Part shown: positions 1-19,900 of the stretch, in pieces | How the letters are laid out: each line of letters starts with the position of its first letter | Numbering within the stretch: the first letter of the stretch is position 1 | Source: a virus | Virus record (IMG/VR): IMGVR_UViG_3300035683_000002 | Location: 73,117-100,689 of that record | Length of the DNA stretch: 27,573 nucleotides | Direction: 5' to 3' (one strand) | Notes under the pieces: generated by a model | Seen by the model: the letters and a program-made list of their open reading frames with translations, nothing else | Told to the model about the DNA's origin: nothing | Databases searched by the model: none | Position numbers and translations under genes: made by a program

Positions 1-93
1 GAGACCGTGCAGTGCCGCTGCACTCTGAAATTCCGGCTGGTCCCGAAGCCGGGCGCGAACCCCATCCGGCGGCTCACCGCCGAGGCCGTCTGA
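1..93 (+). CDS. C-terminal fragment of a phage minor head / head morphogenesis protein (MuF, SPP1 gp7 family); 5'-truncated by the window
   Basis: Frame 1 reads ETVQCRCTLKFRLVPKPGANPIRRLTAEAV* (TGA 91-93). The E-x-x-x-CRC motif is typical of the MuF/gp7 domain end, and the position upstream of the prohead protease fits. Only 30 aa are visible. Confidence 0.65.
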   Translation, partial: ETVQCRCTLKFRLVPKPGANPIRRLTAEAV

Positions 94-103
94 GGAGACC
101 ACC

Positions 104-1324
104 ATGGCGAAGGGCAACTGGCGGGCGCGCCTTCCGCGCGTGCTGCAGGCGATGAGCGTCACCAGCGGCGCGCAGAAGGCGGGCATGATGGCCCGCGAGT
201 TCATGCCGGGCGACAGCGCGGCGAAGCTCGCCGCCCGGGCCGCCAGCACGGCGCGGGCCATCGGGAACGCGGCGACCGGGGCCTATGTCCGCGGCGCCGA
301 TCGCGCGGCGATGCGCGGCGCCCGGAAGACCGGCGGCCAGGCGCGGGAGGGGGCCAAGGCGGCCGTCGCCGGCGCCGAGCGCGAGGCGCGGGACTTCGGG
401 AACAAGATGTTCGGCGTCGACAAGGCGCGGCCCTGGTCCGACAGCCGTCGCCTCTCGAACGTCCAGGGCGGCGTGGACGAGACCCGGGCCGCCGGGGCGG
501 GGATCGTGCGCGGCGCGACCCGGGCCGGCGTGAGGATCGGCGCCGAGCGCGGCGCGGCCGGCTACCACTTCCGCAACGGCGCGGTCGCCGGCGGCGCGGC
601 GGGCGCGGCAGCCGGCTTCGCGGCGGGCCGCAGCGGCCGCGACGAGGAGGTCCGGAAGGGCGTCGGCGCCGGCGAGCTCGGCGAGGAGCCGATGGAGCTG
701 ATGAAGGCCTGGGGCGTGCTGGCGCGCCTCGGCGGCCGCGTGGCCTCCCGCATGGGGGTGGGCCGCGGGGCGGGCATGACGGCGATGCGCGGGGCCTACC
801 GGGGCGCCGCCAACGGCGTCCGGCGCCAGGCGCCCGACAGCGCCAGGGTCGCCGCCGACGACGCCTACCGGGCCGCCCGGAACCCGGTGCTCCCGGTCGG
901 GCCCGGCACCGGCCGCCCCGTCCGCAGCCCGATGATGCGCATGACCGACGAGCGCGGCCAGCGCCTCGAGCGCGTGCCCGGCGCCGGCAACGGGGTCGAC
1001 GCCCGCGCCGCCGGCGACCGCGCCCGCGCGGCCTACATGGCCGGCGTGCCGGGCCAGGCCCGCACCCAGGGGCGCATCGCCGCCCGCTCGGCCGCCCAGG
1101 GCTTCAACGCCGGGGTCCGGCGGAAGGGTGGGATGCTCGCCGCCGGCGCAGGAGCTGCTGCAGCCGGTGGCGGTGCAGCAGCCTTCGCAGCGCCGCGCCG
1201 CCGCGAGGAGCCCGGCATGCGGAAGGCTGTCGCGCTCGCAGACATGCCGCTCGCCAAGCGCGCCCGGCTCGCGCAGGCGATCGAAGACGGAGACGCCGCA
1301 GCCATCGCGGCTCTGCTCGGGTGA
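104..1324 (+). CDS. Ala/Gly/Arg-rich head-region protein (406 aa) with two Gly-zipper modules; putative processed virion cargo
   Basis: RBS GGAG at 94-97, ATG 104. Hydrophobic GxxxG segments GAVAGGAAGAAAGFAAG and GGMLAAGAGAAAAGGGAAAFAA are each followed by R-rich/EE residues and a lysine motif (VRK, MRK). Function is inferred. Confidence 0.75.
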   Translation: MAKGNWRARLPRVLQAMSVTSGAQKAGMMAREFMPGDSAAKLAARAASTARAIGNAATGAYVRGADRAAMRGARKTGGQAREGAKAAVAGAEREARDFGNKMFGVDKARPWSDSRRLSNVQGGVDETRAAGAGIVRGATRAGVRIGAERGAAGYHFRNGAVAGGAAGAAAGFAAGRSGRDEEVRKGVGAGELGEEPMELMKAWGVLARLGGRVASRMGVGRGAGMTAMRGAYRGAANGVRRQAPDSARVAADDAYRAARNPVLPVGPGTGRPVRSPMMRMTDERGQRLERVPGAGNGVDARAAGDRARAAYMAGVPGQARTQGRIAARSAAQGFNAGVRRKGGMLAAGAGAAAAGGGAAAFAAPRRREEPGMRKAVALADMPLAKRARLAQAIEDGDAAAIAALLG

Positions 1325-1617
1325 TCGAGCTCGCGCTGGTGGTGCTGCTCTGCGGCGCCACCGACGAGATGCTCCTCGAGGCGCGCCGGATGGGCGCGCC
1401 CCACGGCCTCCGGCTCGGCGAGACCTTCACCTCCGAGGCTGGGAACGCTGTCACCTTCGAGCGCCGGCCGGCGTCCCTCTGGCCGGCCTGCCTCACGGCG
1501 ACCGTCCCGGTCCACCAGGTGGGATCACCTCGAACGGCGGGTGCTTCCCCACCGGCTCCGCCGGCCACGCGGGGAAGCGGAAGAACCCCTCCAGCATCGA
1601 CATCGCCAGCACGGTGA
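1321..1617 (+). CDS. Small hypothetical protein with hydrophobic N-terminus (98 aa)
   Basis: GTG start overlaps the upstream TGA (GTGA coupling); N-terminus MIELALVVLLC. The 3' 125 bp overlap the convergent minus-strand gene, so the C-terminal part is doubtful. Confidence 0.4.
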   Translation: MIELALVVLLCGATDEMLLEARRMGAPHGLRLGETFTSEAGNAVTFERRPASLWPACLTATVPVHQVGSPRTAGASPPAPPATRGSGRTPPASTSPAR

Positions 1618-2200
1618 GCAGCATCGCGTAGCGGTCCCGGTCGAGCGCCTGCAGGTCCTCCACCGTCGGCGACTTGGCGCCGAACAGCCCGTCGGTGATC
1701 TCGTTCAGCCGCTCCAGCGCCCGCTCATCCGACGGGTATCGCAGGTGAGGGCGCTCCGCGGTGGTCGCCTCCATGAAGGTCAGGACGCTTTCCGGGATCG
1801 GGATGTCGATCCCGAAGTAGTCGAAGCTGCGGTTCAGCGGCTCGGCCTCGCGCATGACGACTTCATGCATGGCGAGCATGTTCGCCAGGAGCGTCGGCAC
1901 CGCCGCCTCCGCCTCCTGCCGCGTCGGCCAGGGTGAACGCACGGGTGTGCCGAAGCAGTCGGCGACGCCGGCGGGCACGCTCTTCAGCTTCACGTCGCAC
2001 AGCCAGCCGCCGAGCTCCCCGCGATTGATCTCCACGAAGGCGAAGTTCTCCTCGGCGAAGTAGCGCGCCTGCGTTCGCGCGGTCTCGGTGAAGAACTCCG
2101 GATCGCCGGGCCGCATGCGCGCCAGCTCCCGCGCCTTCGGCAGCGAGCGCCGCAGCAGCGCCTCCGCCATCCGCCGGTCAATGCGCGCCTGGCTCGCCAT
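1493..2200 (-). CDS. Hypothetical protein (235 aa), antisense moron-like insertion in the head module
   Basis: Globular amino-acid composition (many F/E/L/W), unlike the shadow ORFs. Minus-strand GGAG lies 7 nt before the ATG, and no credible + strand ORF covers 1620-2250. Confidence 0.8.
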   Translation of the reverse strand: MASQARIDRRMAEALLRRSLPKARELARMRPGDPEFFTETARTQARYFAEENFAFVEINRGELGGWLCDVKLKSVPAGVADCFGTPVRSPWPTRQEAEAAVPTLLANMLAMHEVVMREAEPLNRSFDYFGIDIPIPESVLTFMEATTAERPHLRYPSDERALERLNEITDGLFGAKSPTVEDLQALDRDRYAMLLTVLAMSMLEGFFRFPAWPAEPVGKHPPFEVIPPGGPGRSP

Positions 2201-2258
2201 CCACCGCTCCCTTCCAGCGCGTCATGCGCCGCCTGCCCCCATGCCCCGGAGGCTCCCC

Positions 2259-3440
2259 ATGCAGTTCTTCATCCCGCTCGCCAAGATCGACGAGGAGAAG
2301 CGCCTCGTGATCGGCCGCGCCGTCCAGGAGACGGTCGACCGCGCCAACGAGATCCTCGACTACGCCTCCTCCAAGGCGAACTTCGAGACCTGGTCGAAGA
2401 CCATCGAGGAGGCCTCGGGCGGCCTATCGAAGGGCAACCTGCGGTCCATGCACAACCCCCGCTCCGCGAGCGGGAAGATCGTCGACATCGCTTTCGACGA
2501 CGACGCCCGGGCGATCGACATCGTCGCCAAGGTCGTTGACGACCAGGACTGGAAGAAGGTCGTCGAGGGGGTCTTCACCGGGTTCTCGGTGGGCGGCGGC
2601 TACGGGAGGAAGTGGAAGGACCCGGAGACGGGCGCCACCCGCTACACCGCCAAGCCCTCCGAGATCTCCCTCGTCGACCTGCCCTGCATCCACACCGCGC
2701 GGATCGCGGAGTTGCACAAGGCCGACGGCACCCTCTGCAAGGTCTACCTGAGGGGCCGCCCCCGGACCTTCGCCGAGCTCGCGGAGCTGGAGAAGGCGGC
2801 GCCGCCCGCGCGGCCGCGCACCTTCGCCGAGCTCGCCAAGGGCTGGAACGCCTCCGACCACCCGCGCGAGCACGACGGGAAGTTCGCGAAGAAGACCGGC
2901 GAGAACACCGGCATCGGCGTCGGAGCGGTGCTCGGCGGCGCGGCCGGCGCCGCGGCGGGGATGAGGTGGGGCCCGAGCCTCGGCGAGCGGGCCGGCGAGC
3001 GCCTCGCCGGCGGCGGGGCCAAGGGCATCGTCGGCGGGCTGCAGGGCCGGATGGCCGGTGGGAAGTATGGGCCGGCCGTCCTCGGCGTGGCCGGCCTCGT
3101 CGGCGGCGCGCTGGCGGGCGGTTTCCTCGGGGAGGCGGTTGATCGGCGCGGGCGGAATCGCCGGGCTGACGCCGCCTACCAGGCCAAAGCGCAGTCCGGG
3201 CGGATCACCCCGGAGGAGGCGGCCGAGGCCTCGGGCCTCTACCGCCGCAGCAAGGGCTACGGCCTCGAGCAGCAGCGCGCGAAGGAAGCCGATCGGCCGC
3301 TGGGCATCCGCAGCAAGGCCCAGATGGAAGAGTTCGAGGCCGAGTGGAAGCGCCGCGAGGGGCAGTCCCGCATCGTGGAGGTCGACGGCGAGCGACGTGA
3401 GCGCCGCGGCCCACTTGAGCGCCGCGCGGAGAGCCGCTGA
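2259..3440 (+). CDS. Prohead maturation serine protease (HK97/XkdF-like S78 fold) fused to a C-terminal Gly-zipper extension (393 aa)
   Basis: Start MQFFIPLAK at 2259 with GGAGG at 2248-2252. Catalytic-type motifs GNLRSMH (His), FTGFSVGG (Ser) and EISLVDLP. The protease domain ends near LHKADG and is followed by about 235 extra aa. Confidence 0.88.
   Translation: MQFFIPLAKIDEEKRLVIGRAVQETVDRANEILDYASSKANFETWSKTIEEASGGLSKGNLRSMHNPRSASGKIVDIAFDDDARAIDIVAKVVDDQDWKKVVEGVFTGFSVGGGYGRKWKDPETGATRYTAKPSEISLVDLPCIHTARIAELHKADGTLCKVYLRGRPRTFAELAELEKAAPPARPRTFAELAKGWNASDHPREHDGKFAKKTGENTGIGVGAVLGGAAGAAAGMRWGPSLGERAGERLAGGGAKGIVGGLQGRMAGGKYGPAVLGVAGLVGGALAGGFLGEAVDRRGRNRRADAAYQAKAQSGRITPEEAAEASGLYRRSKGYGLEQQRAKEADRPLGIRSKAQMEEFEAEWKRREGQSRIVEVDGERRERRGPLERRAESR
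2766..2836 (+). repeat. 17-bp direct repeat ACCTTCGCCGAGCTCGC (2766-2782, 2820-2836) within a duplicated RPRTFAELA peptide
   Basis: Seen directly; protein reads RPRTFAELAELEK ... RPRTFAELAK. Confidence 0.85.
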
Positions 3441-6400
3441 TGTCCCGCCCGGTGTTCGACGCCGAGACCATCGGCGAGCTGCGCCAGCGCGTCATGGCGC
3501 ACAACGAGGCCGGCCATGCCCGCACCGGGCTGACCGACCTCAAAAAGATCTTCGCACGGGGCTGGGCAGGCGATGCGCCGAAGACCCGTGCCCTCGGCCA
3601 GGTGGACCGCCACCTGGCGCGCCTAGCGAAGAACACGGGCGATTTCGACGAGACGAAGCACCGCCGCGACGGCGACGGGAAGTTCGCCCCACAGGGCCGC
3701 GCGGCCGCCTTCAGCGACGTGCGCTCCCGCCAGGCCGACCGCCAGCTGCGCGACGAGAACAGCGGCTATGCCGCGTCGCAGACGGGCGTCATCCCCGAGA
3801 CCCGCTTCAGCCAGTTCGGCCCGCTGGCCGGTGCGGTCGCCGGCGTCGCCGCCGGCGCGCTGCGCGGTGCCTTCGACGGCGGCGGCCGGCGCTCCCGCGC
3901 GGTGAACCTCGCGATCGGCCGAGGCGCCGCCCGCGTCGTCGACACCGTCGCCGGTAGAGTCCAAGCGGTCCCCGGCATGGCGGCGGACGCGGCCAATGCC
4001 GGTCTCGCGGCCGCGGCGCGCGGCGTGGCCCGGCGGGCCGGCGAGGCCGATCCGCGCGGCTTCGGGCCGGCGGTCAAGGCCCGGGCGGAGCGCTTCGCGG
4101 CCCGCGCCGAGGCCCGGATCCCGGATGAGGTGGGCAAGGGGCAGCGCACGAAGGCGCGCCGCGCGACCGCCCGCGAGAACCTCGGCCTCGTCACCGGCGA
4201 GGCGCTCGACCTGGCCGACCGCGCCGTCATGGCGGCGCCGCGCTTCGTGTCGCGGCACCTGACGGCGAAAGCCAAGCGCATGGACGCCGCCCTCGCCGCG
4301 CGGGGCGCCTCCGACGCCACCCGCCGCGCGGTGCGCGCGGGCCTCGCGATCAAGCGCCCGCTCGCCGCCGGCGCCGTCGGCGCCGTCGTGCCGGGCGCCC
4401 TCTACGGCATCACGAACATGGAGACGATGACAGTGGCCGGTCCCTACCTGGACGCGCTCCTCCCCCGCCGCGTCGAGAAGGGGACCCGCGCCGAGCTCCT
4501 GACGAAGGTCGCGGCGACGCCGGCGAGCCGCGAGGCGCTGGCGAAGATCTCGATGGCGGGCGTGAGGAGCGCGGCGCTCGCGGTCGGGGGCGCGGTGGCG
4601 CGGATGCCGCGCATGGCGATCGCGAGGATGCCGACGCTGCGGGCGCCGAAGCCGCCCGAGCCGAAGCTCTCGTCTAACCAGGCGCGAGGCCGCGAGCGCG
4701 CGGCGACGATGATGGCGCGCAACCCGAACATCGTCCGCGGTGCGGGCAAGGCCGGGCTGATCGGCGCCGCCGCGGCAGGTGCCGGGGGCCTCGGCGCGGC
4801 GGCGGGCTACGGCGCGCGCGAGTACTACCGCGACGAGAACGGCCAGTTCACCTCGAAGGAGCGCGCGGTCCAGCCGGGGATGCGCGGCGCCCTGCAGAGC
4901 GTGGGCGACTTCATCGCGGACAACCCGGTGGGGGTCGGCGCGGCCGCCGGCCTCGTCGCCGGCGCGCTCGGCGCTCGCTCGGCCATCGCCCGCGGCAATC
5001 GCCGCGTCATCCGCGAGATGGCCGACGGCGTGGCGGAGGGCATGACCCGCCGCCTCGCGGTGGTCGGCCGCTTCGCGAAGGCGGCCGAGGAGGCGAAGAG
5101 CAAGGGGGCGTTCGACAAGGTCAACGCCCGGGTGGAGCGGGCCGGCGACGCCATGCGGGCCGCGCGCGACGCCGGCCCCGAGCGCTGGAACGAGTGGAAC
5201 GTCGACAGCGCGCTGCAGACGCGGGTGCGCGGGATGATCCGCTCGGACGCCTTCTGGAAGGCCGAGCCGGTGAAGGCCAACAAGAGGAAGGCGATGGACG
5301 CGCTGCGCGAGAGCGGCGACATCGATCAGCTGAAGCCGCTGGTGAGCGAGGCCGGCTGGACCCGGATCGAGGCGCTGCGCGGCCAGGCGACGAAGCAGAA
5401 GGCGGCCTACAACGCCACCGTCGCGGGCTTCCGCCAGAAGGCGGCCGACGCGATTGAGGACCACAGGGGCAAGTCCAGCCGCGCGGACGACGCGGCCGAT
5501 GCCGCCGAGGCGATCGAGAAGCGGCTCGCGGAGCTGCGCGAGGCCCCCGCGCCGACCACCGCGGCGAAGAAGATCAAGCTCGTCGACACCGAGACCGCGC
5601 TGAAGGCCGAGCTGAAGACGGCCGAGGCGGCCCGCAAGGCGGCCAACGAGACGCGCGACGAGGCGGCCAAGCTCGCCGACGCCTACAAGCAGGTGCTCGC
5701 GAATCCCGGCAAGCAGGTCGACGGCATCAGCTTCCCGGCCGGCGCCGATCCCTGGAACGTCAAGGCGACGCTGCGGCCGCTGCCGTCGAACGTCGACATG
5801 ACCGACCTGCTCGACAAGATGAAGAGCGATCTGCTGGGCGACCTGCAGGGAAAGATCGCCGGGCGGGTGAAGGCGCGGCAGGACGAGGCGCGCCTCATCG
5901 CCACGGCGACGATCGGCGCGCTGCGCCAGGCCGGCGCCGAGCCGGACGGCATCGCCACCCGGGCGATCAACACCTTCGCCGCCCGCCTCTCCGGCCCGAT
6001 GGCGGCCGCGCGGCGCGACATCCGCGCCGCCGGTGGCGTGGTGAGCCGGGCGGTGGAGCGGAAGCTCGGCAGCGCGCCGGGCGCGGTGTCGGCCTATGTG
6101 GGCGACGCGACCAAGCGGGCGCGCAACCTCGTCTACGGGCCGAAGCCGGAGCCGGACGCCGCGGGCAAGGTGCAGCCACGCGCGGGCATTCTGCCGAAGA
6201 TGGCGCGCGCCGCGGCGGACAACCCCCGCGCGGCGATCCTGACGGGGATCACCGGTGCAACCGGCTCCGGCCTGGTCACCTGGGACTCTGCTGACGGCTC
6301 GCTCGACCTGCAGCTGAAGAGCCCGGCCGACATCTGGCGGCGCCTCTCCTCGCCGAAGACGCGGCCGGCGCCGATCATCCGGCCCTTCCACCTCGGTGAC

Positions 6401-8248
6401 ACCCGTTTCCAGCACACGATCGAGGGCCTCGTCGTCACCAACGACAAGAACCAGCGCGTGCTGCTGACCGGCAAGCGGGTGTTCGCGGATGGGCGCGAGG
6501 AGGAGATCCCGCCGCTCACGCCGCTGAAGGACGCGCTCGACTTCTCGGCGGGGCTGCGCAACCGCCAGGGCGGCGGCGGCGGTGGCGGCGGGCAGGGGGC
6601 CCAGCTCAGCGTCGGCAACGACCAGGACAAGGGCACCTGGTCGGCGGCGCTGGGCCGGCTGCGGAACGCGGGCAAGCTCGCCTCCTACGGCGAGGGCGAC
6701 TGGATCTTCTCGGCGCGGAACGACGGCCAGCACGACAGCCAGGACATCAGCGACGCGGACAAGCTGCAGAACGCGCTGCACGCGCAGGCCGCGGCGAAGG
6801 CGAAGGGCGGCAGCTTCGGCTCCGGCTTCGGCAATCCGGGCGAGTGGCACGCCCAGCTCGCCTCGATCGTCGCCGCGCCGGAGAGCAGCATCCTGACGCT
6901 GAAGCAGCGCCAGCGCCTGCTGCTCGGCTCGCAGACCCAGGCCGGCCTCTTCTCCGGGCAGCTGCGGGGCGACGTGATGAAGGCGACCAGCGGCGCTGAC
7001 ACCGCCCGGGCCTTCATGTCCGAGGTCGGCACCGAGCGGCGCGTGCCCTTCGTCTTCAACAACGACCAGCTCGCGAACATGAAGCGCGCGGTCTTCGCGG
7101 TGAACGAGACCCTCGGCTCCGCGAAGATGAACGACGCCCAGCTGCAGACGGTCTTCGACCGGCTGGAGCGCCACCGCGGCGGCGGCGGCCAGCCCGGTGG
7201 CGGGCAGCGCCCGGCGGGCGGCGGCGGCGGCCAGCCCGCAGGCTCTGGCACACCCGGCCCGGCGAGCGGCGGCGCTCGGGCGGCAGGCGGACCGCCGCGG
7301 GCCTCCAGGCAGAGCGCCGATCCCGCGCCCCGCGATCGGATGTCCTACCTCGCCGACGCGGTCACCTTCCGCGAGACCGCCTGGCCGATCACCCAACGGG
7401 ACAGCAAGCGCTTCCTCGCCATCCCGGTCGGCGTCGAGGTCGAGTTCAACAAGGAAGAGGAGGCGCTGCGCCAGCAGCACCCGACCTGGGACGACGACGC
7501 GATCTGGACCGCGGCCACGCGGCGCATCAACGACCGCAGCAACAACCTCACCTTCGGCAAGGCGACGCAGGCGGGGCTGCTGCGGAAGTTCGACGAGGCG
7601 CGCCACGCCCGCGCGCCGCGCGGTTCCGACCGGGGCGGGGAGTTCTCCTCCCGCGCGGGCGGTGCGGCGGCGAGTGCCGCGGTGATGGCGCGCGGTGCCG
7701 CGCCGGTGCGGCCGCCGGGGCGGGAGAACGACGAGCGCTCCTTCTTCGAGCCGACGCGCCTCGGCGCCACGGTCGGCGGCGTCGCCGGCGGCAACGCGGG
7801 CTGGATGCTCGCCGAGCGCTTCATGCCGGGCCCGCTCCGGCGGCTCGGCACCACTGGGCGCCTCGCCTCCCGCCTCGGCGGCATGGCCTCCCGGCTCGGC
7901 TACAAGCTCAGCGGGTCCATGGCCGGTGGCCTGGCGGGCGAGACGGTCGGCGACGCCGCCGGGGCCGGTGTCTACCGCGCGGCCGGCCGACGGGCGCCAG
8001 CGCCCTATGAGCCGCCGGAGCGCGGCGCGGGCGAGGAGGTGGCGCGCACCGCCGGCTCCTTCGCCGGCCTGGCCGCCGGCACCGCCCTCGGCCGAGGCCG
8101 CGGCCGCGCGAGCGCCTTCGGCATCGGCGTCGGCACCACCCTCGCCGGCGAGGAGCTCGCCGGTGCAGCCCAACGGATCGCCGAGCGCCACTACGGCGCC
8201 GAGCGAGGGGGGCGCGCCCGCGCCGCCCTGAACGGGGGTCGCCAGTGA
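3440..8248 (+). CDS. Giant modular head-region protein (1602 aa): Gly-zippers, coiled coil, poly-Gly-linked domains; putative capsid-packaged polyprotein
   Basis: ATG overlaps the protease stop (TGATG). Long ORF with GC-rich third codon positions. Contains three R-(x)n-G-x-F motifs, about 8 GxxxG hydrophobic segments, an Ala/Lys/Glu coiled coil (~5380-5700) and Gly linkers (~6570, ~7180-7290). No recognisable enzyme motif. Confidence 0.85.
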   Translation: MSRPVFDAETIGELRQRVMAHNEAGHARTGLTDLKKIFARGWAGDAPKTRALGQVDRHLARLAKNTGDFDETKHRRDGDGKFAPQGRAAAFSDVRSRQADRQLRDENSGYAASQTGVIPETRFSQFGPLAGAVAGVAAGALRGAFDGGGRRSRAVNLAIGRGAARVVDTVAGRVQAVPGMAADAANAGLAAAARGVARRAGEADPRGFGPAVKARAERFAARAEARIPDEVGKGQRTKARRATARENLGLVTGEALDLADRAVMAAPRFVSRHLTAKAKRMDAALAARGASDATRRAVRAGLAIKRPLAAGAVGAVVPGALYGITNMETMTVAGPYLDALLPRRVEKGTRAELLTKVAATPASREALAKISMAGVRSAALAVGGAVARMPRMAIARMPTLRAPKPPEPKLSSNQARGRERAATMMARNPNIVRGAGKAGLIGAAAAGAGGLGAAAGYGAREYYRDENGQFTSKERAVQPGMRGALQSVGDFIADNPVGVGAAAGLVAGALGARSAIARGNRRVIREMADGVAEGMTRRLAVVGRFAKAAEEAKSKGAFDKVNARVERAGDAMRAARDAGPERWNEWNVDSALQTRVRGMIRSDAFWKAEPVKANKRKAMDALRESGDIDQLKPLVSEAGWTRIEALRGQATKQKAAYNATVAGFRQKAADAIEDHRGKSSRADDAADAAEAIEKRLAELREAPAPTTAAKKIKLVDTETALKAELKTAEAARKAANETRDEAAKLADAYKQVLANPGKQVDGISFPAGADPWNVKATLRPLPSNVDMTDLLDKMKSDLLGDLQGKIAGRVKARQDEARLIATATIGALRQAGAEPDGIATRAINTFAARLSGPMAAARRDIRAAGGVVSRAVERKLGSAPGAVSAYVGDATKRARNLVYGPKPEPDAAGKVQPRAGILPKMARAAADNPRAAILTGITGATGSGLVTWDSADGSLDLQLKSPADIWRRLSSPKTRPAPIIRPFHLGDTRFQHTIEGLVVTNDKNQRVLLTGKRVFADGREEEIPPLTPLKDALDFSAGLRNRQGGGGGGGGQGAQLSVGNDQDKGTWSAALGRLRNAGKLASYGEGDWIFSARNDGQHDSQDISDADKLQNALHAQAAAKAKGGSFGSGFGNPGEWHAQLASIVAAPESSILTLKQRQRLLLGSQTQAGLFSGQLRGDVMKATSGADTARAFMSEVGTERRVPFVFNNDQLANMKRAVFAVNETLGSAKMNDAQLQTVFDRLERHRGGGGQPGGGQRPAGGGGGQPAGSGTPGPASGGARAAGGPPRASRQSADPAPRDRMSYLADAVTFRETAWPITQRDSKRFLAIPVGVEVEFNKEEEALRQQHPTWDDDAIWTAATRRINDRSNNLTFGKATQAGLLRKFDEARHARAPRGSDRGGEFSSRAGGAAASAAVMARGAAPVRPPGRENDERSFFEPTRLGATVGGVAGGNAGWMLAERFMPGPLRRLGTTGRLASRLGGMASRLGYKLSGSMAGGLAGETVGDAAGAGVYRAAGRRAPAPYEPPERGAGEEVARTAGSFAGLAAGTALGRGRGRASAFGIGVGTTLAGEELAGAAQRIAERHYGAERGGRARAALNGGRQ

Positions 8249-8397
8249 GCGACGCGCCCGCGCCAGCCGCGCCAGCTCCGACGACAGCCGGAGCCTGGAC
8301 GCAATCCACCAATGCCTTCGCGGGGCTGACCGCGACCGACCTCGCGCGCAGGCGCAGGCGAAGACAGCCAAAGCCAACCGAACACGCGTCCACCCCA

Positions 8398-8427
8398 GGG
8401 GGCAGGCCAGAGGCCGGCCCCCTTTTT
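8398..8427 (+). terminator. Rho-independent terminator-like hairpin upstream of the scaffold ATG
   Basis: GGGGGC-A-GGC-CAGAG-GCC-G-GCCCCC followed by TTTTT. Confidence 0.6.
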
Positions 8428-8445
8428 CGTTCCCGGAGACCCCCG

Positions 8446-9843
8446 ATGAGCAAGGCCTACACGGACATCCTCGAGCTGCTCGAGACGAGCGTCGGCGAGA
8501 TCGTCACCAGTGACGCGGAGAACCGCGACGAGCTGCTGAAGACCACCTTCGGCGAGGCCCGCGAGGCGCTCGCCAAGCGCGCGGCCGAGGACCTGCCCGT
8601 GCCGGTCGGCGAGGCCGACGCGCTGACGCTGCTGGCCGACCGCATCGGCGGGCTGGAGGAGGTCGTCGAGGCGATCGAGGGCGAGGCCTGCGGCGAGGGC
8701 GTGGTCGTCTCCGTCGCGGCGGTCGGCCTGGCGAAGCGCTTCCTGGCGCATGGCGGCCTGCTGCTGCGTGCGATCGCCTCCGAGCAGGTGGCGCCGCTCG
8801 AGGAGGGCGAGACCGAGGCCCCCGAGGGCATGAGCCTGCTGAAGTTCGCCTTCGGTGAGGGCGAGGGCGAGGAGATCCTGCTCAAGTCCGCGCTGCCGGA
8901 CGAATACGCCCCGCTGGTCGCGGCGCCCGAGGAGATCGCGGCGATGCTCGCCGAGCTCGGCGCCGACCTCATGGAGGATGCCGGCGTGGATCTCGGCCCG
9001 CTCGCCAAGGCGGCGCGCGAGGAGGACGAAGACGAGGACGGTGAGGGCGACGAAGGCGAAGGCGAGGGCGAAGGCGAGGGTGAAGGCGAGGGCGAGGGCG
9101 GCGATGACGTCGACCTCGACGGCGACGACAGCCCGATGGAGGCAGTCGCCAAGCTCGCCACGATGATCCTCATCCAGGTGGACGCGATCCGCCAGGAGAT
9201 GGGCCCCGACGCCGGCGGCGCGGCGATGGAGGGCGGCGAGGGCGAGGGCGGCGAGGGCGAGGGCCCCGACGAGCTCACCGCGCTCGACGCCATCGCGCAG
9301 CACGCCGCCTTCATCGCGGTGCAGGCCGACGCGCTGGAGAGCGTGCTCAACGACGGCGATCTCGGCGCAATGGAGGGCGAGGGCCAGCAGCAGCAGCAGC
9401 CGCCGCGCGCCCCCGCGCCCACCGGCCGCGCCGGCGAGGGCGAGGATGACGGCGCCGCGGCCGAGGCGGAGGAGAAGAACAAGAAGCCCTTCGGCAAGGG
9501 CGTCGACGCCGGCGAGCTCGCCAAGGCGATCGCGGCGAGCCCCGAGGTGGTGGAGCTGCGCAAGCGCGCCGATCGCGCCGAGGTGGCGGAGCGGGAGATG
9601 GCCGAGATGCGCGAGCGCCTGGCGAAGCTCGAGCGTCAGCCCGTCGATCCGAAGGGCGTTCTCTCCGGCCTCGTCACCCTGACGAAGCAGGCCGAGAACG
9701 GTGGCGAGGGCGAGGGCGAGGCGAAGACCACCGACGAGCTCGCGCAGGACCTCGCGAAGCGCGACCCGCAAGAGGTGGTGCACGCCATGTTCAAAATCGC
9801 AGGGGCCAACCCGATCCCCATGCGCACGACCTGGGGCGGCTGA
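8446..9843 (+). CDS. Acidic capsid scaffolding protein (465 aa); possible in-frame longer form from GTG 8245
   Basis: GGAG RBS at 8435-8438. Extremely Glu/Asp-rich, with a C-terminal coiled coil ending LAKLERQPVDPKG. Lies between the protease and the MCP. By my count 15 of 20 lysines are in an [LVMF]-x-K context. Confidence 0.75.
   Translation: MSKAYTDILELLETSVGEIVTSDAENRDELLKTTFGEAREALAKRAAEDLPVPVGEADALTLLADRIGGLEEVVEAIEGEACGEGVVVSVAAVGLAKRFLAHGGLLLRAIASEQVAPLEEGETEAPEGMSLLKFAFGEGEGEEILLKSALPDEYAPLVAAPEEIAAMLAELGADLMEDAGVDLGPLAKAAREEDEDEDGEGDEGEGEGEGEGEGEGEGGDDVDLDGDDSPMEAVAKLATMILIQVDAIRQEMGPDAGGAAMEGGEGEGGEGEGPDELTALDAIAQHAAFIAVQADALESVLNDGDLGAMEGEGQQQQQPPRAPAPTGRAGEGEDDGAAAEAEEKNKKPFGKGVDAGELAKAIAASPEVVELRKRADRAEVAEREMAEMRERLAKLERQPVDPKGVLSGLVTLTKQAENGGEGEGEAKTTDELAQDLAKRDPQEVVHAMFKIAGANPIPMRTTWGG
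9019..9108 (+). repeat. Degenerate hexamer repeat (GGCGAR/GAYGAR) encoding an (ED)n(GE)n acidic tract
   Basis: Protein reads EEDEDEDGEGDEGEGEGEGEGEGEGEGGDD. Confidence 0.8.
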
Positions 9844-10171
9844 TCCAGGGCATCAGGATCCGCTCGGCCATGGCCCCGTGAGGGGAGCGGCCGAACGGCG
9901 GCGGTCCACCGGAGCCCGAAATCCGGTCCCGATCGAGGGCATCGACACGCTCGAGGAGGCGCGACCGCCGTCCGCTCCCCGCGGAGAGGGCGGCCCCGCC
10001 ACGTCCGGCTGAGCACCGGACCCGCTACCTGACCGCGACGCAGTGGGGGCAACCGAACGCGCAATCCAGCGCGTGCGGCGCCTCGTGCTGCGCGCGGTCC
10101 TGGCCCGTCTAAGCCGTTGGGCCGCGGCGATCTCAGCCCCCCGTCATCTGGGGGGCCGGAACCCCGACCAA
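9844..10171 (+). ncRNA. Candidate structured RNA / cis-regulatory leader of the major capsid gene
   Basis: 328-nt intergenic gap almost filled with helices, e.g. 9895-9906/9963-9971, 9908-9927, 10003-10021, 10031-10043/10088-10099, 10057-10074, 10136-10156. GNRA loops GTGA and GCAA. Not matched to any known family. Confidence 0.4.
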
Positions 10172-11689
10172 ATGAATACCGTGGACGTCAACGCGTCGTT
10201 CGACGCGATCAAGGCTGCGCTGAGCAAGGCGCTGCCGCAGTCCGAGCTGCAGAAGGCCTGGACGCAGAGCCAGAACCCCACCACCGGGCTGACGATGTAC
10301 AGCCTGGAGGCGCCCGCCAAGATGGTGGTGCCGCAGGTCACCCCGTTGAGGAATCGCATCCCGCGCGTGACCGGCGGGCAGGGCATCCAGGCCAACTGGC
10401 GCGCAATCACCGCGCTGTCCACCGCCATGCCGGGCATCGGCGTGAGCGAGGGTCGCCGTGGTGGCCTCGTCGAGGGCGTGGTCACCGAGTACTACGCGAA
10501 GTTCGTGCAGCTCGGCGTCGAGAGCGCCGTGTCGTTCGAGGCGCAGCTCGCGGGCGAGGGCTTCGATGACGTGAAGGCTCGCGCCGTCCAGGGCATGCTG
10601 ATGCACCTGATGATGGGTGAGGAGCAGGTCATCCTCGCGGGTCAGGGCACCTTCGGTCTCGGCGTGACGCCGACGCCGGTGCTGGCCACCTCTGTTTCCG
10701 GTGGTACGCTCGCGGCGGCAACCAACGTCTTCGTGCGCGTCGTCGCCCTCACGCTCGAGGGCTACATGGCGGCGAAGGCCGGCATGGTGCGCGGCTCCGT
10801 GGCGCGGTCCAACGCCGACGGCAGCACCGACAACTACGGCTCGGGCGCGGCGGGCGCGTCGAACTCCGCCACCGTGGCGACGGGCGGCGCGGGTGCGGCG
10901 CACAGCGTGACGGCGTCGGTGACGCCGGTGCGCGGCGCGATGGCCTATGCCTGGTTCGTGGGCTCGGTCGACGGCTCCGCCGGCAACCTCCGCCTGCACG
11001 ACGTGACGACGATCAACTCGACCGTCATCCGTGCGCTGCCGGGCGGCGGCAACCTCGCGCTGCCGGCCGACCTCGTCGGCAACGACCGCTCCGCCAACGG
11101 CCTGGTGCACGATGGCTACATCGGCATCGCGGCGCGCGCGGGCAGCGGCTCGTACTTCCGCCACCTCGACACCGGCGTCGCCGGCGTTGGGTCGCCGCTG
11201 ACGAGCGACGGCGCGGGCGGCATCGTGGAGTTCGACGATGCGCTGCGCTGGTTCTGGGACAACCTGCGCCTCTCGCCGAGCGAGATCTGGGTGTCGAGCG
11301 AGCAGGCGGCGTCCATGCGCAAGCTCATTCTCGCGGCCGGCTCTGCGGCGACGCAGCGCTTCACCTTCGTGTCGGCGCAGGGCGACCTGAAGGGCGGCGG
11401 CAAGGTGCGCGGCTACATCAACGTGTTCGGCATGGGTGCGGCGCCCGAAATCCCGATCGAGAGCCACCCGTACCTGCCGCCGGGCACGGTGCTGTTCCTG
11501 ACGCACCAGCTGCCCTACCCGGTGTCCAACATCGGGCAGACGTCGCGAATTCTTTGCAGGCGCGATTATCACCAGCTGGACTGGCCGCTCCGGACCCGTA
11601 TGCACGAGATGGGTGCATATACCGATCAGGTCCTGCAGCACTACTTCCCGCCCAGCATCGGCGTCATTTCCAACATCGCGAAGGGCTAG
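10172..11689 (+). CDS. Major capsid protein (HK97-like fold, 505 aa) with an inserted beta-rich domain
   Basis: Motifs GLTMYSLEAPAK, PQVTPLRNRIPRV, GVSEGRRG, MGEEQVIL and IPIESHPYLPPGT. Follows the scaffold and precedes a strong terminator. Short propeptide ends LSK...LQK. Ser/Thr/Val/Ala-rich insert at ~10660-11090. Confidence 0.88.
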   Translation: MNTVDVNASFDAIKAALSKALPQSELQKAWTQSQNPTTGLTMYSLEAPAKMVVPQVTPLRNRIPRVTGGQGIQANWRAITALSTAMPGIGVSEGRRGGLVEGVVTEYYAKFVQLGVESAVSFEAQLAGEGFDDVKARAVQGMLMHLMMGEEQVILAGQGTFGLGVTPTPVLATSVSGGTLAAATNVFVRVVALTLEGYMAAKAGMVRGSVARSNADGSTDNYGSGAAGASNSATVATGGAGAAHSVTASVTPVRGAMAYAWFVGSVDGSAGNLRLHDVTTINSTVIRALPGGGNLALPADLVGNDRSANGLVHDGYIGIAARAGSGSYFRHLDTGVAGVGSPLTSDGAGGIVEFDDALRWFWDNLRLSPSEIWVSSEQAASMRKLILAAGSAATQRFTFVSAQGDLKGGGKVRGYINVFGMGAAPEIPIESHPYLPPGTVLFLTHQLPYPVSNIGQTSRILCRRDYHQLDWPLRTRMHEMGAYTDQVLQHYFPPSIGVISNIAKG

Positions 11690-13258: not shown

Positions 13259-13915
13259 ATGGCCGAGGATTTCGGCGCCTCGGTCGGCCAGTGGGTCGAC
13301 CGGGCAGGCGGGCGGGCCCGGGAGGCCTTCCTCGCCATCGGCATCGACGTCCTCGCCCGGGTGAAGGAGCTCACCCCCGTCGACACCGGCAATCTCCGGG
13401 CCGGCTGGCAGCTCATGCGCCAGGGGGAGGAACTCCCCGTCGACCGCGAGCTGCTGAAGGACGCCGGCGGCCTCGGCGCAGGCCTCGCCGGCGGCTGGGC
13501 GGGCGCGAGGGCCGGCGCCGCGGCCGGCGCGCGGATCGGCCTCGCGGTCGGTGGCGCGGGCGGCGCCGCGATCGGCGGCACGATCGGCGGCCTCGCCGGC
13601 GGCCTCGCCGGATCCCTCGCGGCCGAAGAGGCGACGGGCGCTGCGATCGACGCGGCGATGCCGGCCGGCACCATCGGCGGCGCCTTCGGCCCGGTCACCG
13701 ACACCCGCCCCGTGGCCGAGGTGCAGCTCGGCGAGACGCTCGTCGTGGTGAACCCCGTCGTCTACGCGCGGCGCATCGAGTTCGGCTGGGAGATCGAACG
13801 GGTGGACGGCACCACTACCACCGTCAGGGGCGCCGGGATGATGGCCCAGACGATGAGCGAGCTCCCCGCCATCGCGGACCGCGCGGTCAAGCGCGTGCTC
13901 GGAGAAGGCGCATGA
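13259..13915 (+). CDS. HK97 gp10-family tail completion / neck protein with an internal Gly-zipper insertion
   Basis: TPVDTGNLRAGW and NPVVYARRIEFG...GMM family motifs, separated by a ~75-aa Gly/Ala tract. Confidence 0.82.
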   Translation: MAEDFGASVGQWVDRAGGRAREAFLAIGIDVLARVKELTPVDTGNLRAGWQLMRQGEELPVDRELLKDAGGLGAGLAGGWAGARAGAAAGARIGLAVGGAGGAAIGGTIGGLAGGLAGSLAAEEATGAAIDAAMPAGTIGGAFGPVTDTRPVAEVQLGETLVVVNPVVYARRIEFGWEIERVDGTTTTVRGAGMMAQTMSELPAIADRAVKRVLGEGA

Positions 13916-16996: not shown

Positions 16997-19900
16997 ATGG
17001 ACGTCGCGAAGCTCCAGTTCAGCATCGACAGCACCCAGGCCCGCGACGCGCGCCGGGACCTCGAGGAGATGCGCCGGGCATCCGTCGACGCCGCCAGCCA
17101 GGCGGCGGAGCTGTCGCGCGGCTGGGAGCGCGGCTCGCCCGTCGCCGCCGCCTTCCGCGAGCAGTTGCGGGGCAACGCCGCCGAGGCGCGCGACCTCACC
17201 TCGACGATCGACGGCCTGGTCGACCGCTTCGGCCGCCTCGCCCGCGCCCAGCAGGACGGGCTGGCCACGCTGCGCGAGGTGCAGACCGTCTTCACCGAGC
17301 TGGAAGCGACGGGCCGAATGTTCGGCACCAACGCCTCCGGCCTCGAGACCTTCAACCGCGCCTCCCGCCAGCTCGCCCTCGATGCCGGCCAGTCGGTGAC
17401 CGCGCTGCGCGCCATGACCGCGGCGCTCGAGGGCCTCAGCGCCCAGGGCCAGGCCGCGCGCGGCGTGCTGGAGAACTACGGCGTCCGGGTCGAGGGCCGC
17501 AGCCCGTCCGAGGCCGGCACCGTGCTCCGCGAGTTCCAGAGCCAGGCCCGCCGCTTCGCGCCCGACCCGCTCCGCCGGCAGGAGCTGGCGATGTTCGGCA
17601 TCGACAGCCCCGAGGCCGTCCGCGCCTTCGAGTTCCCGGAATACCGCTCGATCGAGAGCCGCGCCGGCGAGGCCCGCCGCGCCGAGCTCGGCGCCGACGT
17701 CAGCAGGATGCGCGAGCGCCGGCTGTACAACGAGCGCGAGGCCGACACCCGCGCGGCGCGCCTGGCGGACATGGAGAAGGAGTGGGGCGCCCGCGAGAGC
17801 GGCGTTCCCGCCTGGCTCAACGCCATCCCCGGCGTCGGCTCCATCATCCAGGGGATCGACCGCGCCACCACCTCCGACGCCGAGCGCCTCCGCGCGCTCG
17901 AGGCCCGCGCCATCGAGGGCGCCGCGCGCGGCGAGCAGCCCTACTCCGGGACGATGCAGGGCCGCCTCGACGCGGCCACCGGGCGGGCCAGCGACGCCGG
18001 GCTGATCTACAACCCGCTCCGCAACCCGATGGCCTGGGCCATCACGCGCTCCTTCGCGCCCTTCGCCCAGATGGCGGGCGAGTACGCCAACTCCGACGCC
18101 TACGCCGAGCGGAGCGCGGTGCTCGACACCCGCTACCGCCTCGACCGCGAGACCGACACCAGCCCCTTCGGCTTCGCGTCCCGCATCGGTGACGCCGGCC
18201 GGCGCATCCGCCACTTCCTCGGCGACAGCAGCTTCGTCCGCACGGTCGCCGAGGAGATGCCGGAGGACCGGCGCCCGGTGAACGAGCGCCTGCCCGAGTA
18301 CCAGCAGGGCACCCAGAACATCCTCCGCCGCGGCCAGCTGTCGCCGATCGAGGAGGCGCGCCGGAACATCTACATCAGCGCCGCCCGCGAGTTCGGCCTC
18401 GGCACCGATGGCTGGGACCGGATGCGGCCGGAGGAGATCTGGAACCTCCGCCCCGGCACGCCGGGCGTCCGCCAGCCCGCCCCGATCCGCGACGGCGCCA
18501 CCCCGCCCGGCCTCCCGGAGGTGATGTCGCCCGACGGCTGGAGCCCCGACGGGATTCCCGCCAACCCGACCCGCCCGCAGGGGGAGATCGGGCAGGGGGG
18601 CTATTGGGACGGGCAGCGCAGGGCGGTCGAGGGCCGGCTCTACGCGCTCGATTCCGTCGCCAACCAGGAGTTCGACCGCGCCCTCCAGCCGATGCGCGAC
18701 ACCCGCGCGGCCGCGCGCCGCGGCATGGAGGAGACCGGCACGCTGGCCGGCGGCGAGCGCGCCGCCTATCAGGCCGAAGCCGAGGCCCGGGCGAAGAACA
18801 GCCTCTTCACCACCGAGCAGCAGCAGCACCGCCTCCGCATGGAGATGGCGGAGTTCGATGACCGCCGCCGCCTGATCGCCCAGCAGAACGTCACCGTCAC
18901 CGAGGAGCAGACCCGCGCCGTCGAGGCGCAGACGGTCGCCTTCCGCGCGGCGATCGCCGAGGGCCGCACCTTCGCCGAGGCCCAGGGCATCGCCGCCCGC
19001 GCAGGCCTCGACACCCGCGAAGGCCAGAGCCCCGCCCGCGAGGGCATGGCCGGCGCCCAGGCCCGCTCGATGTGGGTCTCGGCCGAGGCCGACGCCTCCT
19101 TCGGCCGCGGCCGGATGGACGACAGCCTCCGCGAGGAGAGCCGCCGGGTGGGCGCCATGCGCACCGGCGGCGCCGACGCGCTGGCCGCGCTCAACGCCGA
19201 ACTCGCCAAGACCGCCGAGCTCGCCCCCCTGATCGCCGCGGCCGAGAAGCTCCGCGGGGAGGAGCTCGAGCGCGCCCGGGCCCGGATCGGCGAGATCTCC
19301 ACCCAGTTCGATGGCCAGCTCGAGCGCGCCCGCGCCCTCGGCTCGGAGATGCGCCTCCTCCAGCTGCGGAGCGACAACGCGGCCCTGCAGGGCAACCTCC
19401 GCACCGAGGACGGGATGCTCGGCGCCGACGGCACCACCGCGCCGCGGAACATCCGCATCCGCCGCTTCATCCAGGACAACGCCGAGACCGCCTACAGCCC
19501 GGCCGAGCTCCGCCAGTTCGAGGGGATGACCGGCTCCACCCGCCGGGACGCGATGTTCCAGCGCCTCGACGAGCCCCGCCGGGCGGAGCTCCGCCGGCGC
19601 TACGAGCTCGGCGAGGAGGGGCGCCTCCTCGATGAGGAGCCGATGCAGGTTGCGCGCAACCGCATCGCGGAGGTCAGCTACGGGGCGAACCCCCTCAACC
19701 GGATCGAGACCGCCCGGGAGCTCGCCCGGATCCGCGGCGAGGCGCGCGGCGCCAGCCCGGCCGAGATCCGCCGCGAGGTGGACCTGGCGGGCATCGAGGC
19801 CCGGGTGCCGATCGAGCAGTCCACCCGGCAGTTCTTCCGCGACCAGGCGAGCGCCCGGGAGACGGCGGAGGCGGACCTCGCCTGGTTCCGCTCCGGTCGC

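Follow-up and report, generated by a model that had tools for sequence, protein, structure and literature searches.

Why should the head module of a siphophage encode a series of large, basic proteins rich in glycine zippers, the largest of them lying between the genes for the prohead protease and the scaffold? The question is raised by IMG/VR virus record IMGVR_UViG_3300035683_000002, a complete 100,689-bp virus with terminal repeats and 72% GC, of which we analyzed positions 73,117 to 100,689, the last 27.6 kb (27,573 bp; the window). Three proteins are at issue: p406 (406 aa), the prohead protease with its long C-terminal extension, and p1602 (1602 aa; also called the giant here). A sequence-only reading had taken them for precursors that are loaded into the prohead, cut there and ejected with the DNA as membrane-active agents. 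We give about an even chance (roughly 0.5) to the reading that the zipper proteins are head-internal cargo, which would enter the prohead along with the scaffold, be trimmed at a few L-x-K sites and remain with the DNA; the case is built from the genes and their homologs.

Reading frames and gene order

Since the GC content is so high, genes were called by codon-position GC (GC3, and GC1>GC2). The coding frames are 104-1324 (+), 1493-2200 (-), 2088/2259-3440 (+), 3440-8248 (+), 8245-9843 (+) and 10043-11689 (+), and those of p406, the protease and p1602 have GC3 values of 0.93-0.95 with GC1>GC2. These values back the three ORFs of the sequence-only reading, with a protease extension of about 233 aa against the 235 or so that it had claimed. 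It is hardly credible that the long frames and Ala/Gly/Arg runs simply result from 74% GC, with motifs over-read by eye. High GC does give long spurious ORFs (a minus-strand 1584-aa mirror ORF at 3623-8377 is spurious by codon-position GC), and p406 has no homologs beyond a sister phage, but the codon-position values of the named frames, the significant shuffle tests and a family of 1399-1665-aa homologs with conserved architecture (see below) all speak against an artefact, and for the protease and p1602 it is already refuted.

The genes of these frames are preceded by those for the large terminase, the portal, a 672-aa protein (p672) and a 1211-aa protein with InPase and MuF domains, and followed by genes for the head-tail adaptor, tail tube, an 1822-aa tape measure protein with an SLT domain and lambda-type tail-tip proteins. 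The p406, protease and p1602 genes are thus encoded among head-packaging genes (portal, MuF, protease). A TGATG overlap joins the protease stop to the p1602 start, and a GTGA overlap joins the p1602 stop to the scaffold start; judged by these overlaps, protease, giant and scaffold are shown to be translationally coupled in that order. We rejected p1602 as a second tape measure, the tape measure being a separate gene (16997-22465; phrog_1716, SLT) and p1602 a head-module protein with no PHROG match.

A leader tag beside lysine sites

The sequence-only reading noted that three modules begin, directly after a hydrophobic-x-K (phi-x-K) site, with an (F/W)...H-x-R...G-x-F motif. This holds for all three copies, which start 0-5 residues downstream of an L-x-K (chance about 1e-4). 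The motif is a diverged copy of a widespread tag, WDESKHPR-x3-G-x-F, whose full consensus, from a logo of 112 instances, is [WF]-D-E-S-K-H-P-R, then x3-G-x-F or x-P-x-G-S-x2-G-G-x-F, then a Gly/Ser-rich linker. Tag copy 1 (WNASDHPREHDGKF; 2844-2894, +) is at protease aa 196, directly behind ELAK-G; copy 2 (FDETKHRRDGDGKF; 3644-3694, +; short form) is at p1602 aa 69; and copy 3 (FDEARHARAPRGSDRGGEF; 7589-7654, +; long form) is at p1602 aa 1384, directly behind LLRK. These are the three real copies in the genome, a fourth regex match lying in an Arg-rich stretch of an unrelated ORF. They have diverged locally (HPR, HRR and HAR), and by their letters and placement they read as genuine leaders: each has H-x-R and G-x-F, stands at the N-terminal edge of a module with a Gly/Ser-rich linker and lies 5-40 aa ahead of a zipper.

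The tag is common elsewhere. In phmmer searches the p1602 tag-3 region matched two to six tag copies per polyvalent-type protein (E 5.9e-14 to 9e-4), and these multi-copy proteins carry ART-PolyVal, Acb1, MuF, Hint, TopoIB, Peptidase_S78_2 and XkdF-type protease domains. A back-translated pattern for its first eight residues found the exact tag in more than 102 IMG/VR contigs among the matches listed. The 72 carrier ORFs include 18 with a portal-family domain, 12 with LPD3, six with PBECR1, five with DUF2213 (annotated as head maturation protease in many cultured phages), four with MuF and four with ART-PolyVal. In the carriers checked protein by protein (from loci L050, L045 and L031) the tag precedes the effector domain and lies outside every Pfam model. 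The 35-aa consensus tag matched nothing among 50,697 cultured phages, probably because the query is short and was filtered, and a literature search found no paper describing the tag. Among 94 tags of other phages, 51% have an [LIMFVA]-x-K that ends at most six residues upstream, against 12% in a control window. A cut just ahead of the tags is therefore plausible on this spacing.

Probable specificity of the prohead protease

The protease ORF (2088/2259-3440) likely starts at MQFFIPL, nt 2259, giving a protein of 393 aa. Its protease domain (aa 1-165; 2259-2753, +), with the catalytic His in SMHNP and Ser in FTGFS, matches phrog_9427 (head maturation protease) at E 2.5e-11; a Pfam search was empty, and NCBIfam proheadase_HK97 was reached at E 0.055, under its cutoff. 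The alignment to protease domains of relatives covers the first ~160 aa and leaves a C-terminal extension of ~233 aa. The domain shares 38-62% identity with clade proteases and with the N-terminal parts of protease-scaffold fusions, and pairwise and clade alignments show its His, in (S/V)MH, and its Ser, in TGFS, to be conserved. On the family match and these residues it would be an HK97-type (herpesvirus-assemblin-fold) protease. Behind the domain comes a linker (2754-2843, +) with two PRTFAELA-x(0-2)-K repeats that end in L-E-K and L-A-K; comparable F-x-x-[LA]-x-K repeats occur in the proteases of L132, L133 and L135, three loci of the clade described below. The linker leads into tag copy 1 and two glycine-zipper helices (aa 217-235 and 273-291; 2907-3131, +). 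The extension is kept in part in L133 and L132; in L131 the protease match stops ~12 nt ahead of the match to the giant, and in L135 the protease ORF has only 219 aa.

One sign of where this protease probably cuts comes from the major capsid protein (MCP; 10043-11689, +; phrog_13692, 8e-119), which is 46% identical to the MCP of Brevundimonas phage Polewnik. All of 12 MCPs (32-55% identity) have an L-x-K immediately ahead of the conserved N-arm; that of the window MCP is L69-Q70-K71 (nt 10247-10255), followed by A72. The listed MCP ORF probably begins too early, since relatives align from a conserved M-N at residue 44, and a start at M44 (nt 10172) would give a propeptide of ~27 aa with three phi/A-x-K sites (AIK, LSK and LQK).

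The scaffold (8245-9843, +) is acidic (net charge -63), and its C-terminus matches that of a relative's protease-scaffold fusion. Of its 21 lysines, 15 are in phi-x-K, with 4.4 expected. The site is also enriched in 11 of 11 related protease-scaffold fusions (p<=0.0135) and in six distinct scaffolds of the clade (p<=0.004 in five, 0.057 in one), while phi-x-E is not enriched in the related fusions (marginal in only one of 11) and control genes of this genome have 91 phi-x-K where 90 are expected. p406 has six against 2.1 expected (p 0.007), and the protease has six L-x-K against 1.6. We also note that the N-terminus of the scaffold ORF has AWTQSTNAFAGLT (8293-8343), which resembles the MCP sequence AWTQSQNPTTGLT (10256-10306) right behind L-Q-K. 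The true start of the scaffold is uncertain, because GC3 is weak at 8101-8400.

Because L-x-K is invariant in the MCPs, phi-x-K is enriched in scaffolds and fusions, and L-x-K stands beside the tags, cleavage after lysine is likely, and the prohead protease is probably specific for the Lys of L/phi-x-K. The sequence-only reading had placed sites of this one form at the module boundaries of all the zipper proteins, as in the scaffold; an enrichment is seen in the scaffold, in p406 and, as L-x-K, in the protease, and not in p1602 taken as a whole.

An opened protease-scaffold gene

The giant belongs to a family found at seven IMG/VR loci (contigs up to 93-106 kb) and in one prophage. Where sequenced, the gene order is portal, p672-like protein, MuF, variable zipper protein(s), protease, giant, scaffold and MCP. 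Loci L131-L136 and L138 keep MuF, protease and giant and, where sequenced, scaffold and MCP; the L137 contig is incomplete at its 5' end. L138 is the prophage, of ~103 kb, in Rhodovarius crocodyli CCP-6 (Acetobacteraceae; NZ_SACL01000004.1:388599-409423), and its matches are identical to those of IMG/VR locus L134, on a 103-kb contig. A prophage in a cultured R. crocodyli that matches L134 suggests that the clade is temperate and infects Acetobacteraceae, and this ~100-kb siphophage clade probably does infect that family.

More distant MCP relatives are built differently. In 18 of them (L011-L028) and in Polewnik a single 444-700-aa protease-scaffold fusion lies beside the MCP gene, and they have no giant; where complete, their genomes are ~60-65 kb. 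Since relatives have the fusion, the window scaffold matches the fusion C-terminus, and the TGATG and GTGA overlaps join the genes, the ancestral protease-scaffold gene was opened in this clade, and the zipper tail and the giant lie inside it.

The giant protein

Homologs of p1602 are not easily reached. Pfam, PHROGs and NCBIfam searches gave no match to it, nor to p406, p672 or the scaffold, a scan of IMG/VR for close relatives with p1602 peptides gave nothing, and a word-indexed homolog search returned the sister phage alone; the family came solely from an exhaustive phmmer search and an alignment-based scan. With p1602 aa 520-1420 as the query, exhaustive phmmer found a 98%-identical sister protein and five homologs of 1399-1665 aa at 25-34% identity, none of the six with a Pfam domain.

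The family alignment shows a fixed plan: N-domain, short tag, zipper, VEK347/LAK369 pair, zipper-degenerate tag-zipper, variable helical region, globular part, long tag and C-terminal zipper module. The conserved N-terminal domain (aa 1-64; 3440-3631, +) ends in a conserved L-A-K, kept as LAK or LRK in four of the four homologs that have their N-terminus. Tag copy 2 and a conserved zipper behind VIPETR (aa 123-141; 3806-3862, +) follow, and then the pair of family-invariant phi-x-K sites, V-E-K347 and L-A-K369 (4472-4546, +). Next are a zipper at aa 438-459, a degenerate tag, YYRDENGQFTSKERAV, at aa 461-476 and a zipper at aa 497-512 (4751-4975, +); D465, E466, G468 and F470 of the degenerate tag are invariant in the family.

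The middle of p1602 (5027-7588, +) is not zipper. Its central ~850 aa (aa ~530-1380) are coiled coil or variable helical sequence and a globular part: variable helices at aa ~530-900, a small beta domain at aa ~964-1044, a helical domain at aa ~1060-1250, poly-Gly linkers and a further helical segment. The model of aa 900-1380 that AlphaFold made from a 14-row alignment is of moderate quality (pLDDT 62 overall); over the helical domain, 10-residue blocks average pLDDT 74-91, one of them dipping to 51. Searches with this model by Foldseek (PDB, BFVD) and VIA-align wide gave no match that rose over background, the highest Z, 6.2, being that of a helical hairpin, and aa 955-1255 had no usable match in the ESM Atlas. 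Behind tag copy 3 the protein closes with a conserved C-terminal zipper module (aa 1433-1602; 7736-8248, +), modeled with five helices and a disordered tag at pLDDT 65. For this module a Foldseek search of the PDB gave nothing significant, and its weak Tim17/22/23-type rows (E 0.4-2.5) are not relied on.

Only four phi-x-K sites of p1602 are conserved (at 34, 62, 345 and 367), and across the family LAK64, VEK347 and LAK369 are kept. Because the giants are not enriched for phi-x-K (counts below) and only these four sites are conserved, few specific cuts are to be expected and not many pieces. The sequence-only reading had counted on about six to eight mature products; with about three or four conserved candidate sites in the giant, that number is not supported. 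The picture of p1602 as an unbroken chain of protease-delimited zipper modules likewise falls with the non-enriched phi-x-K and the non-zipper middle.

The main rival explanation, though an unlikely one, is that the giant and the other zipper proteins serve assembly only, as an extra scaffold or core or as a head-size determinant for a larger capsid, with zipper helices and charge making them self-associate with the scaffold, and are degraded or expelled before or during packaging and never delivered. That would suit the presence of the giant only in the 93-106-kb clade, the ~60-65-kb relatives having the plain fusion, as well as its place between protease and scaffold and coupled to both, its long variable helical middle and the pairing of a basic giant with an acidic scaffold. 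However, the scaffolds are packed with phi-x-K and the giants are not, which argues against wholesale digestion of the giants; the tag is otherwise found on effector-type modules (ART, PBECR, Acb1, TopoIB); and the conservation of the globular and C-terminal modules suggests that the giant does more than fill space.

Charge and glycine zippers

Net charges are +35 for p406 and +78 for p1602, against the strongly acidic scaffold, and among proteins of >400 aa in the genome these two and the two upstream proteins (p672 and MuF) are the most basic. Against composition-matched shuffles, GxxxG is found 20 times in the protease where 7 are expected, 43 times in p1602 (25) and 15 times in p406 (10.7; marginal), and the longer GxxxGxxxG 14 times in the protease (0.9), 18 times in p1602 (3.2) and six times in p672 (0.9). 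It is mainly in five consecutive head genes (p672, MuF, p406, protease and p1602) and one tail-completion gene that long uncharged zipper runs are found, and zipper positions are kept in homologs at 28-38% identity. The description of all three proteins as strings of basic Ala/Gly/Arg-rich GxxxG modules therefore survives in composition, in charge and in the zippers of the protease and p1602, and has to be given up for the middle of p1602, with p406 marginal. In the scaffold, (GE)n and acidic runs (aa ~250-290 and ~320-400) inflate the GxxxG count, and it is not a zipper.

Given their marginal hydrophobicity and positive crude insertion energies, the zipper segments cannot count as classical membrane helices. 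They could be soluble in the capsid and become membrane-active only under certain conditions or could, equally, be oligomerization motifs, and we only infer membrane activity.

If the zippers serve oligomerization alone, the proteins may be loaded and trimmed and then neutralize or organize the DNA in the head and protect or escort it on entry, much as T4 internal proteins do. Charges of +35 to +78, among the highest of the large proteins of the genome, fit such a role, as do zippers too weakly hydrophobic on a crude scale for spontaneous membrane insertion, and there is a precedent in gp44 of staphylococcal phage 80alpha, which passages of PMC7290940 describe as an ejection protein that binds genome ends. 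Still, we hold this quite unlikely: Pfam, PHROG and NCBIfam searches found no DNA-binding domain, the zipper periodicity is conserved across the family, and the sole fold hints for the C-terminal module, weak as they are, are to membrane proteins.

The hydrophobic Gly/Ala segments look like membrane anchors, and the JGI name for the sister protein is ElaB/YqjD/DUF883-like; morons also occur in the operon, for example the antisense gene at 1493-2200. One might thus suppose that these are membrane-associated non-structural proteins of a late operon (superinfection exclusion, lysis timing or a membrane assembly platform) and no part of the virion. We regard this as very unlikely, since the genes are translationally coupled to protease and scaffold, one zipper protein is the C-terminus of the protease itself, the tags are common to portal, MuF and protease proteins, and the position is conserved in every clade member. 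We set the ElaB/YqjD/DUF883 name aside as probably a low-complexity artefact, there being no Pfam or NCBIfam match to it.

Proposed route into and out of the head

In the cargo reading, to which we gave an even chance above, the basic proteins would co-assemble with the acidic scaffold in the procapsid, with the tags, the conserved N-terminal domain of the giant or both as the loading signal. That they are loaded into the prohead, as the sequence-only reading held, has indirect support from the shared tag, the placement inside a split gene, the coupling and a charge complementary to that of the scaffold. The prohead protease, acting at L/phi-x-K, would then digest the scaffold, remove the MCP propeptide and make a few cuts in the cargo, most likely just upstream of each tag and at V-E-K347/L-A-K369, giving roughly three to four products of the giant and a released protease tail. 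The basic zipper-bearing products would remain with the DNA and exit via the tail upon infection. In the weakest step, the zipper helices would bind to or insert in the host envelope, or oligomerize there, and so aid entry or act on the host.

Several observations weigh against this scheme. p1602 has 16 phi-x-K where 14 are expected, and the homologous giants are likewise not enriched (clade p 0.12-0.99); the site ahead of tag 3 is kept in only one of five homologs; and helix periodicity could account for part of the enrichment in the scaffolds. p406 lacks a tag, and its only homolog is in the sister phage. Since the tag co-occurs with proteases of different families, recognition by the protease need not be its role. 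Kyte-Doolittle means of the zippers are only 1.2-1.9, their crude insertion energies are positive, and p406, the protease, p1602 and p672 match none of the Pfam Gly-zipper families PF13488, PF13436, PF13441 and PF05433 even at E<=10. A tblastn search with p1602 found no match in the 50,697 cultured phages. Finally, a tape measure of 1822 aa with an SLT domain is already present for crossing the envelope.

More tentatively, we can imagine that the leader tag with an adjacent protease site (here L-x-K) serves tailed phages in general as a portable "load and cut" signal, whereby whatever module follows it would be brought into the procapsid and set free there as a protein of its own, and that this clade, by opening its own protease-scaffold gene, loads membrane-active zipper modules with it instead of enzymes; this is possible, though we would not yet count on it.

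Neighboring genes

p406 (104-1324, +; GC3 0.93) is a basic Ala/Gly/Arg-rich protein with two zipper runs (aa 159-175 and 342-363) in addition to its six phi-x-K sites. A word-indexed search found only an identical copy on the 100,080-bp contig of the sister phage, and a local phmmer search of the clade ORFs found no match. In relatives its position is occupied by other, non-homologous zipper proteins.

Between p406 and the protease lies a conserved antisense gene (1493-2200, -; GC3 0.91, GC1>GC2) that the sequence-only reading did not mention. Its 235-aa product has an ordinary composition, is not of the zipper set and has a 38%-identical homolog, also on the minus strand, right behind MuF in L131. 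Pfam, PHROGs, NCBIfam and PDB sequence searches gave no match and the ESM Atlas no usable one, and a promoter and terminator scan around the gene found no consensus sites. Perhaps the gene is a moron, or one that provides immunity or regulation for the neighboring cargo.

The upstream p672 and MuF proteins also bear zipper modules that had gone unnoticed in the sequence-only reading. The 3' end of the gene for the 1211-aa MuF/InPase polyvalent head protein occupies 1-93 (+) of the window, the gene beginning 5' of it; its Pfam matches are InPase (8e-39) and Phage_Mu_F (6e-12), so that it has at least two domains of the polyvalent inventory in one polypeptide. The protein has two zipper runs as well as a leader, phi-x-K|RTPGTPLSEAEL. 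This second leader, in which phi-x-K precedes RTPGTPLSEAEL-x-QRR and a glycine zipper comes next, is at aa 211 of p672 (L009:8746-10764) and aa 67 of the MuF protein (L009:10575-14210) and, in L133, at 1278, 3341 and 4160. The exact motif was found in one other IMG/VR contig only, that of L133; on such matches the second leader is rare and restricted to the clade of ~100-kb phages.

Outside the head module, zippers are present only in the tail-completion protein and a small ORF near the tail tip. The former, an HK97-gp10-like protein (13259-13915, +; Pfam E 1.7e-4), has a long inserted Gly-rich hydrophobic stretch with two zipper runs, of 15 and 30 aa.

Comparison with known head-internal proteins

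The T4 internal proteins (IPI-III and Alt) are basic, co-assemble with an acidic core by means of a targeting leader and are ejected with the DNA; the leader is removed by gp21, which cuts after Glu (L/I-x-E). As far as can be told from genes alone, the window has the same elements: basic cargo, an acidic scaffold, a short leader and a simple phi-x-charged site. Unlike in T4, a cut is predicted after Lys and the product would keep its tag; the two sets have no sequence relationship. The proteins here are 4-15 times larger and have zipper helices, and the host phage is a siphovirus, not a T4-like myovirus.

The proteases of the phiKZ group are specific for A/S/G-x-E. In the phiKZ-like phage SPN3US, according to passages of PMC7411985, PMC10052503 and PMC5694885, the prohead protease gp245 cuts the head-internal ejection (E) proteins, some of them into several fragments that are retained and ejected. 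Large head-internal proteins cut by a prohead protease at a short consensus are also what we predict here; however, the protease specificity differs, there is no homology and no shared tag is known, and a 100-kb siphovirus is compared with a jumbo myovirus that has an inner body.

Gp7, gp16 and gp20 of P22 and gp14, gp15 and gp16 of T7 are stored in the capsid, exit via the tail and form a trans-envelope conduit in Gram-negative hosts (passages of PMC8402733 and PMC6702177). The likely host here is Gram-negative as well, given the Rhodovarius prophage. Unlike these podoviruses, which have no tape measure, the phage has its 1822-aa tape measure with an SLT domain; there is no homology, and the P22 and T7 ejection proteins are not protease-processed polyproteins.

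Polyvalent and MuF-toxin proteins (Iyer, Burroughs, Anand, de Souza, Aravind 2017, PMC5512222; Jamet et al. 2017, PMC5576092; both in passages) are large multi-module proteins encoded beside portal, MuF and protease, for which packaging in the head and delivery along with the DNA are predicted, and the zipper proteins resemble them in this. The same leader tag parts the modules of ART-PolyVal, Acb1, TopoIB and MuF proteins. Unlike theirs, the modules here are glycine-zipper helices and a globular part with no recognizable enzymes: Pfam detected no inventory domain in p406, the protease tail or p1602, where two would define a polyvalent protein. Where a passage of Iyer et al. proposes processing by an MPTase domain (PMC5512222), we propose the prohead protease. 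In the text that they covered, term searches of PMC5512222 and PMC5576092 turned up neither the tag nor a Lys-specific cut.

The zippers are like those of transmembrane families (Gly-zipper_Omp, _OmpA, _YMGG and Rick_17kDa_Anti) in having GxxxGxxxG within Ala/Gly-rich, mildly hydrophobic helices, but with no model match and marginal hydrophobicity the resemblance is one of pattern only. A literature search found nothing relevant on glycine zippers in phage ejection proteins. The zipper cargo, its placement in a split gene and the pairing of a tag with a Lys site set the proteins of this clade apart from the T4 internal proteins, the phiKZ-group E proteins and the polyvalent proteins.

Implications

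Head cargo and its selection are known for only a few model phages. The tag, the inferred protease rule and the "insertion experiment" that nature has made in the protease-scaffold gene point towards a cargo-loading route of general use, and the cultured R. crocodyli CCP-6 with its clade prophage makes the idea testable at the bench. If it is true, a head protease that cuts beside each tag would explain how polyvalent proteins are split into working parts, a sequence rule would predict virion cargo in metagenomic phages, and there would be a way to direct chosen proteins into capsids. Among proteins delivered by siphoviruses, the zipper cargo would itself be of a new kind. Should the tag and its site indeed be a "load and cut" signal, they would be the phage counterpart of encapsulin cargo-loading peptides, and the zipper proteins a new class of ejected, envelope-acting siphovirus proteins.

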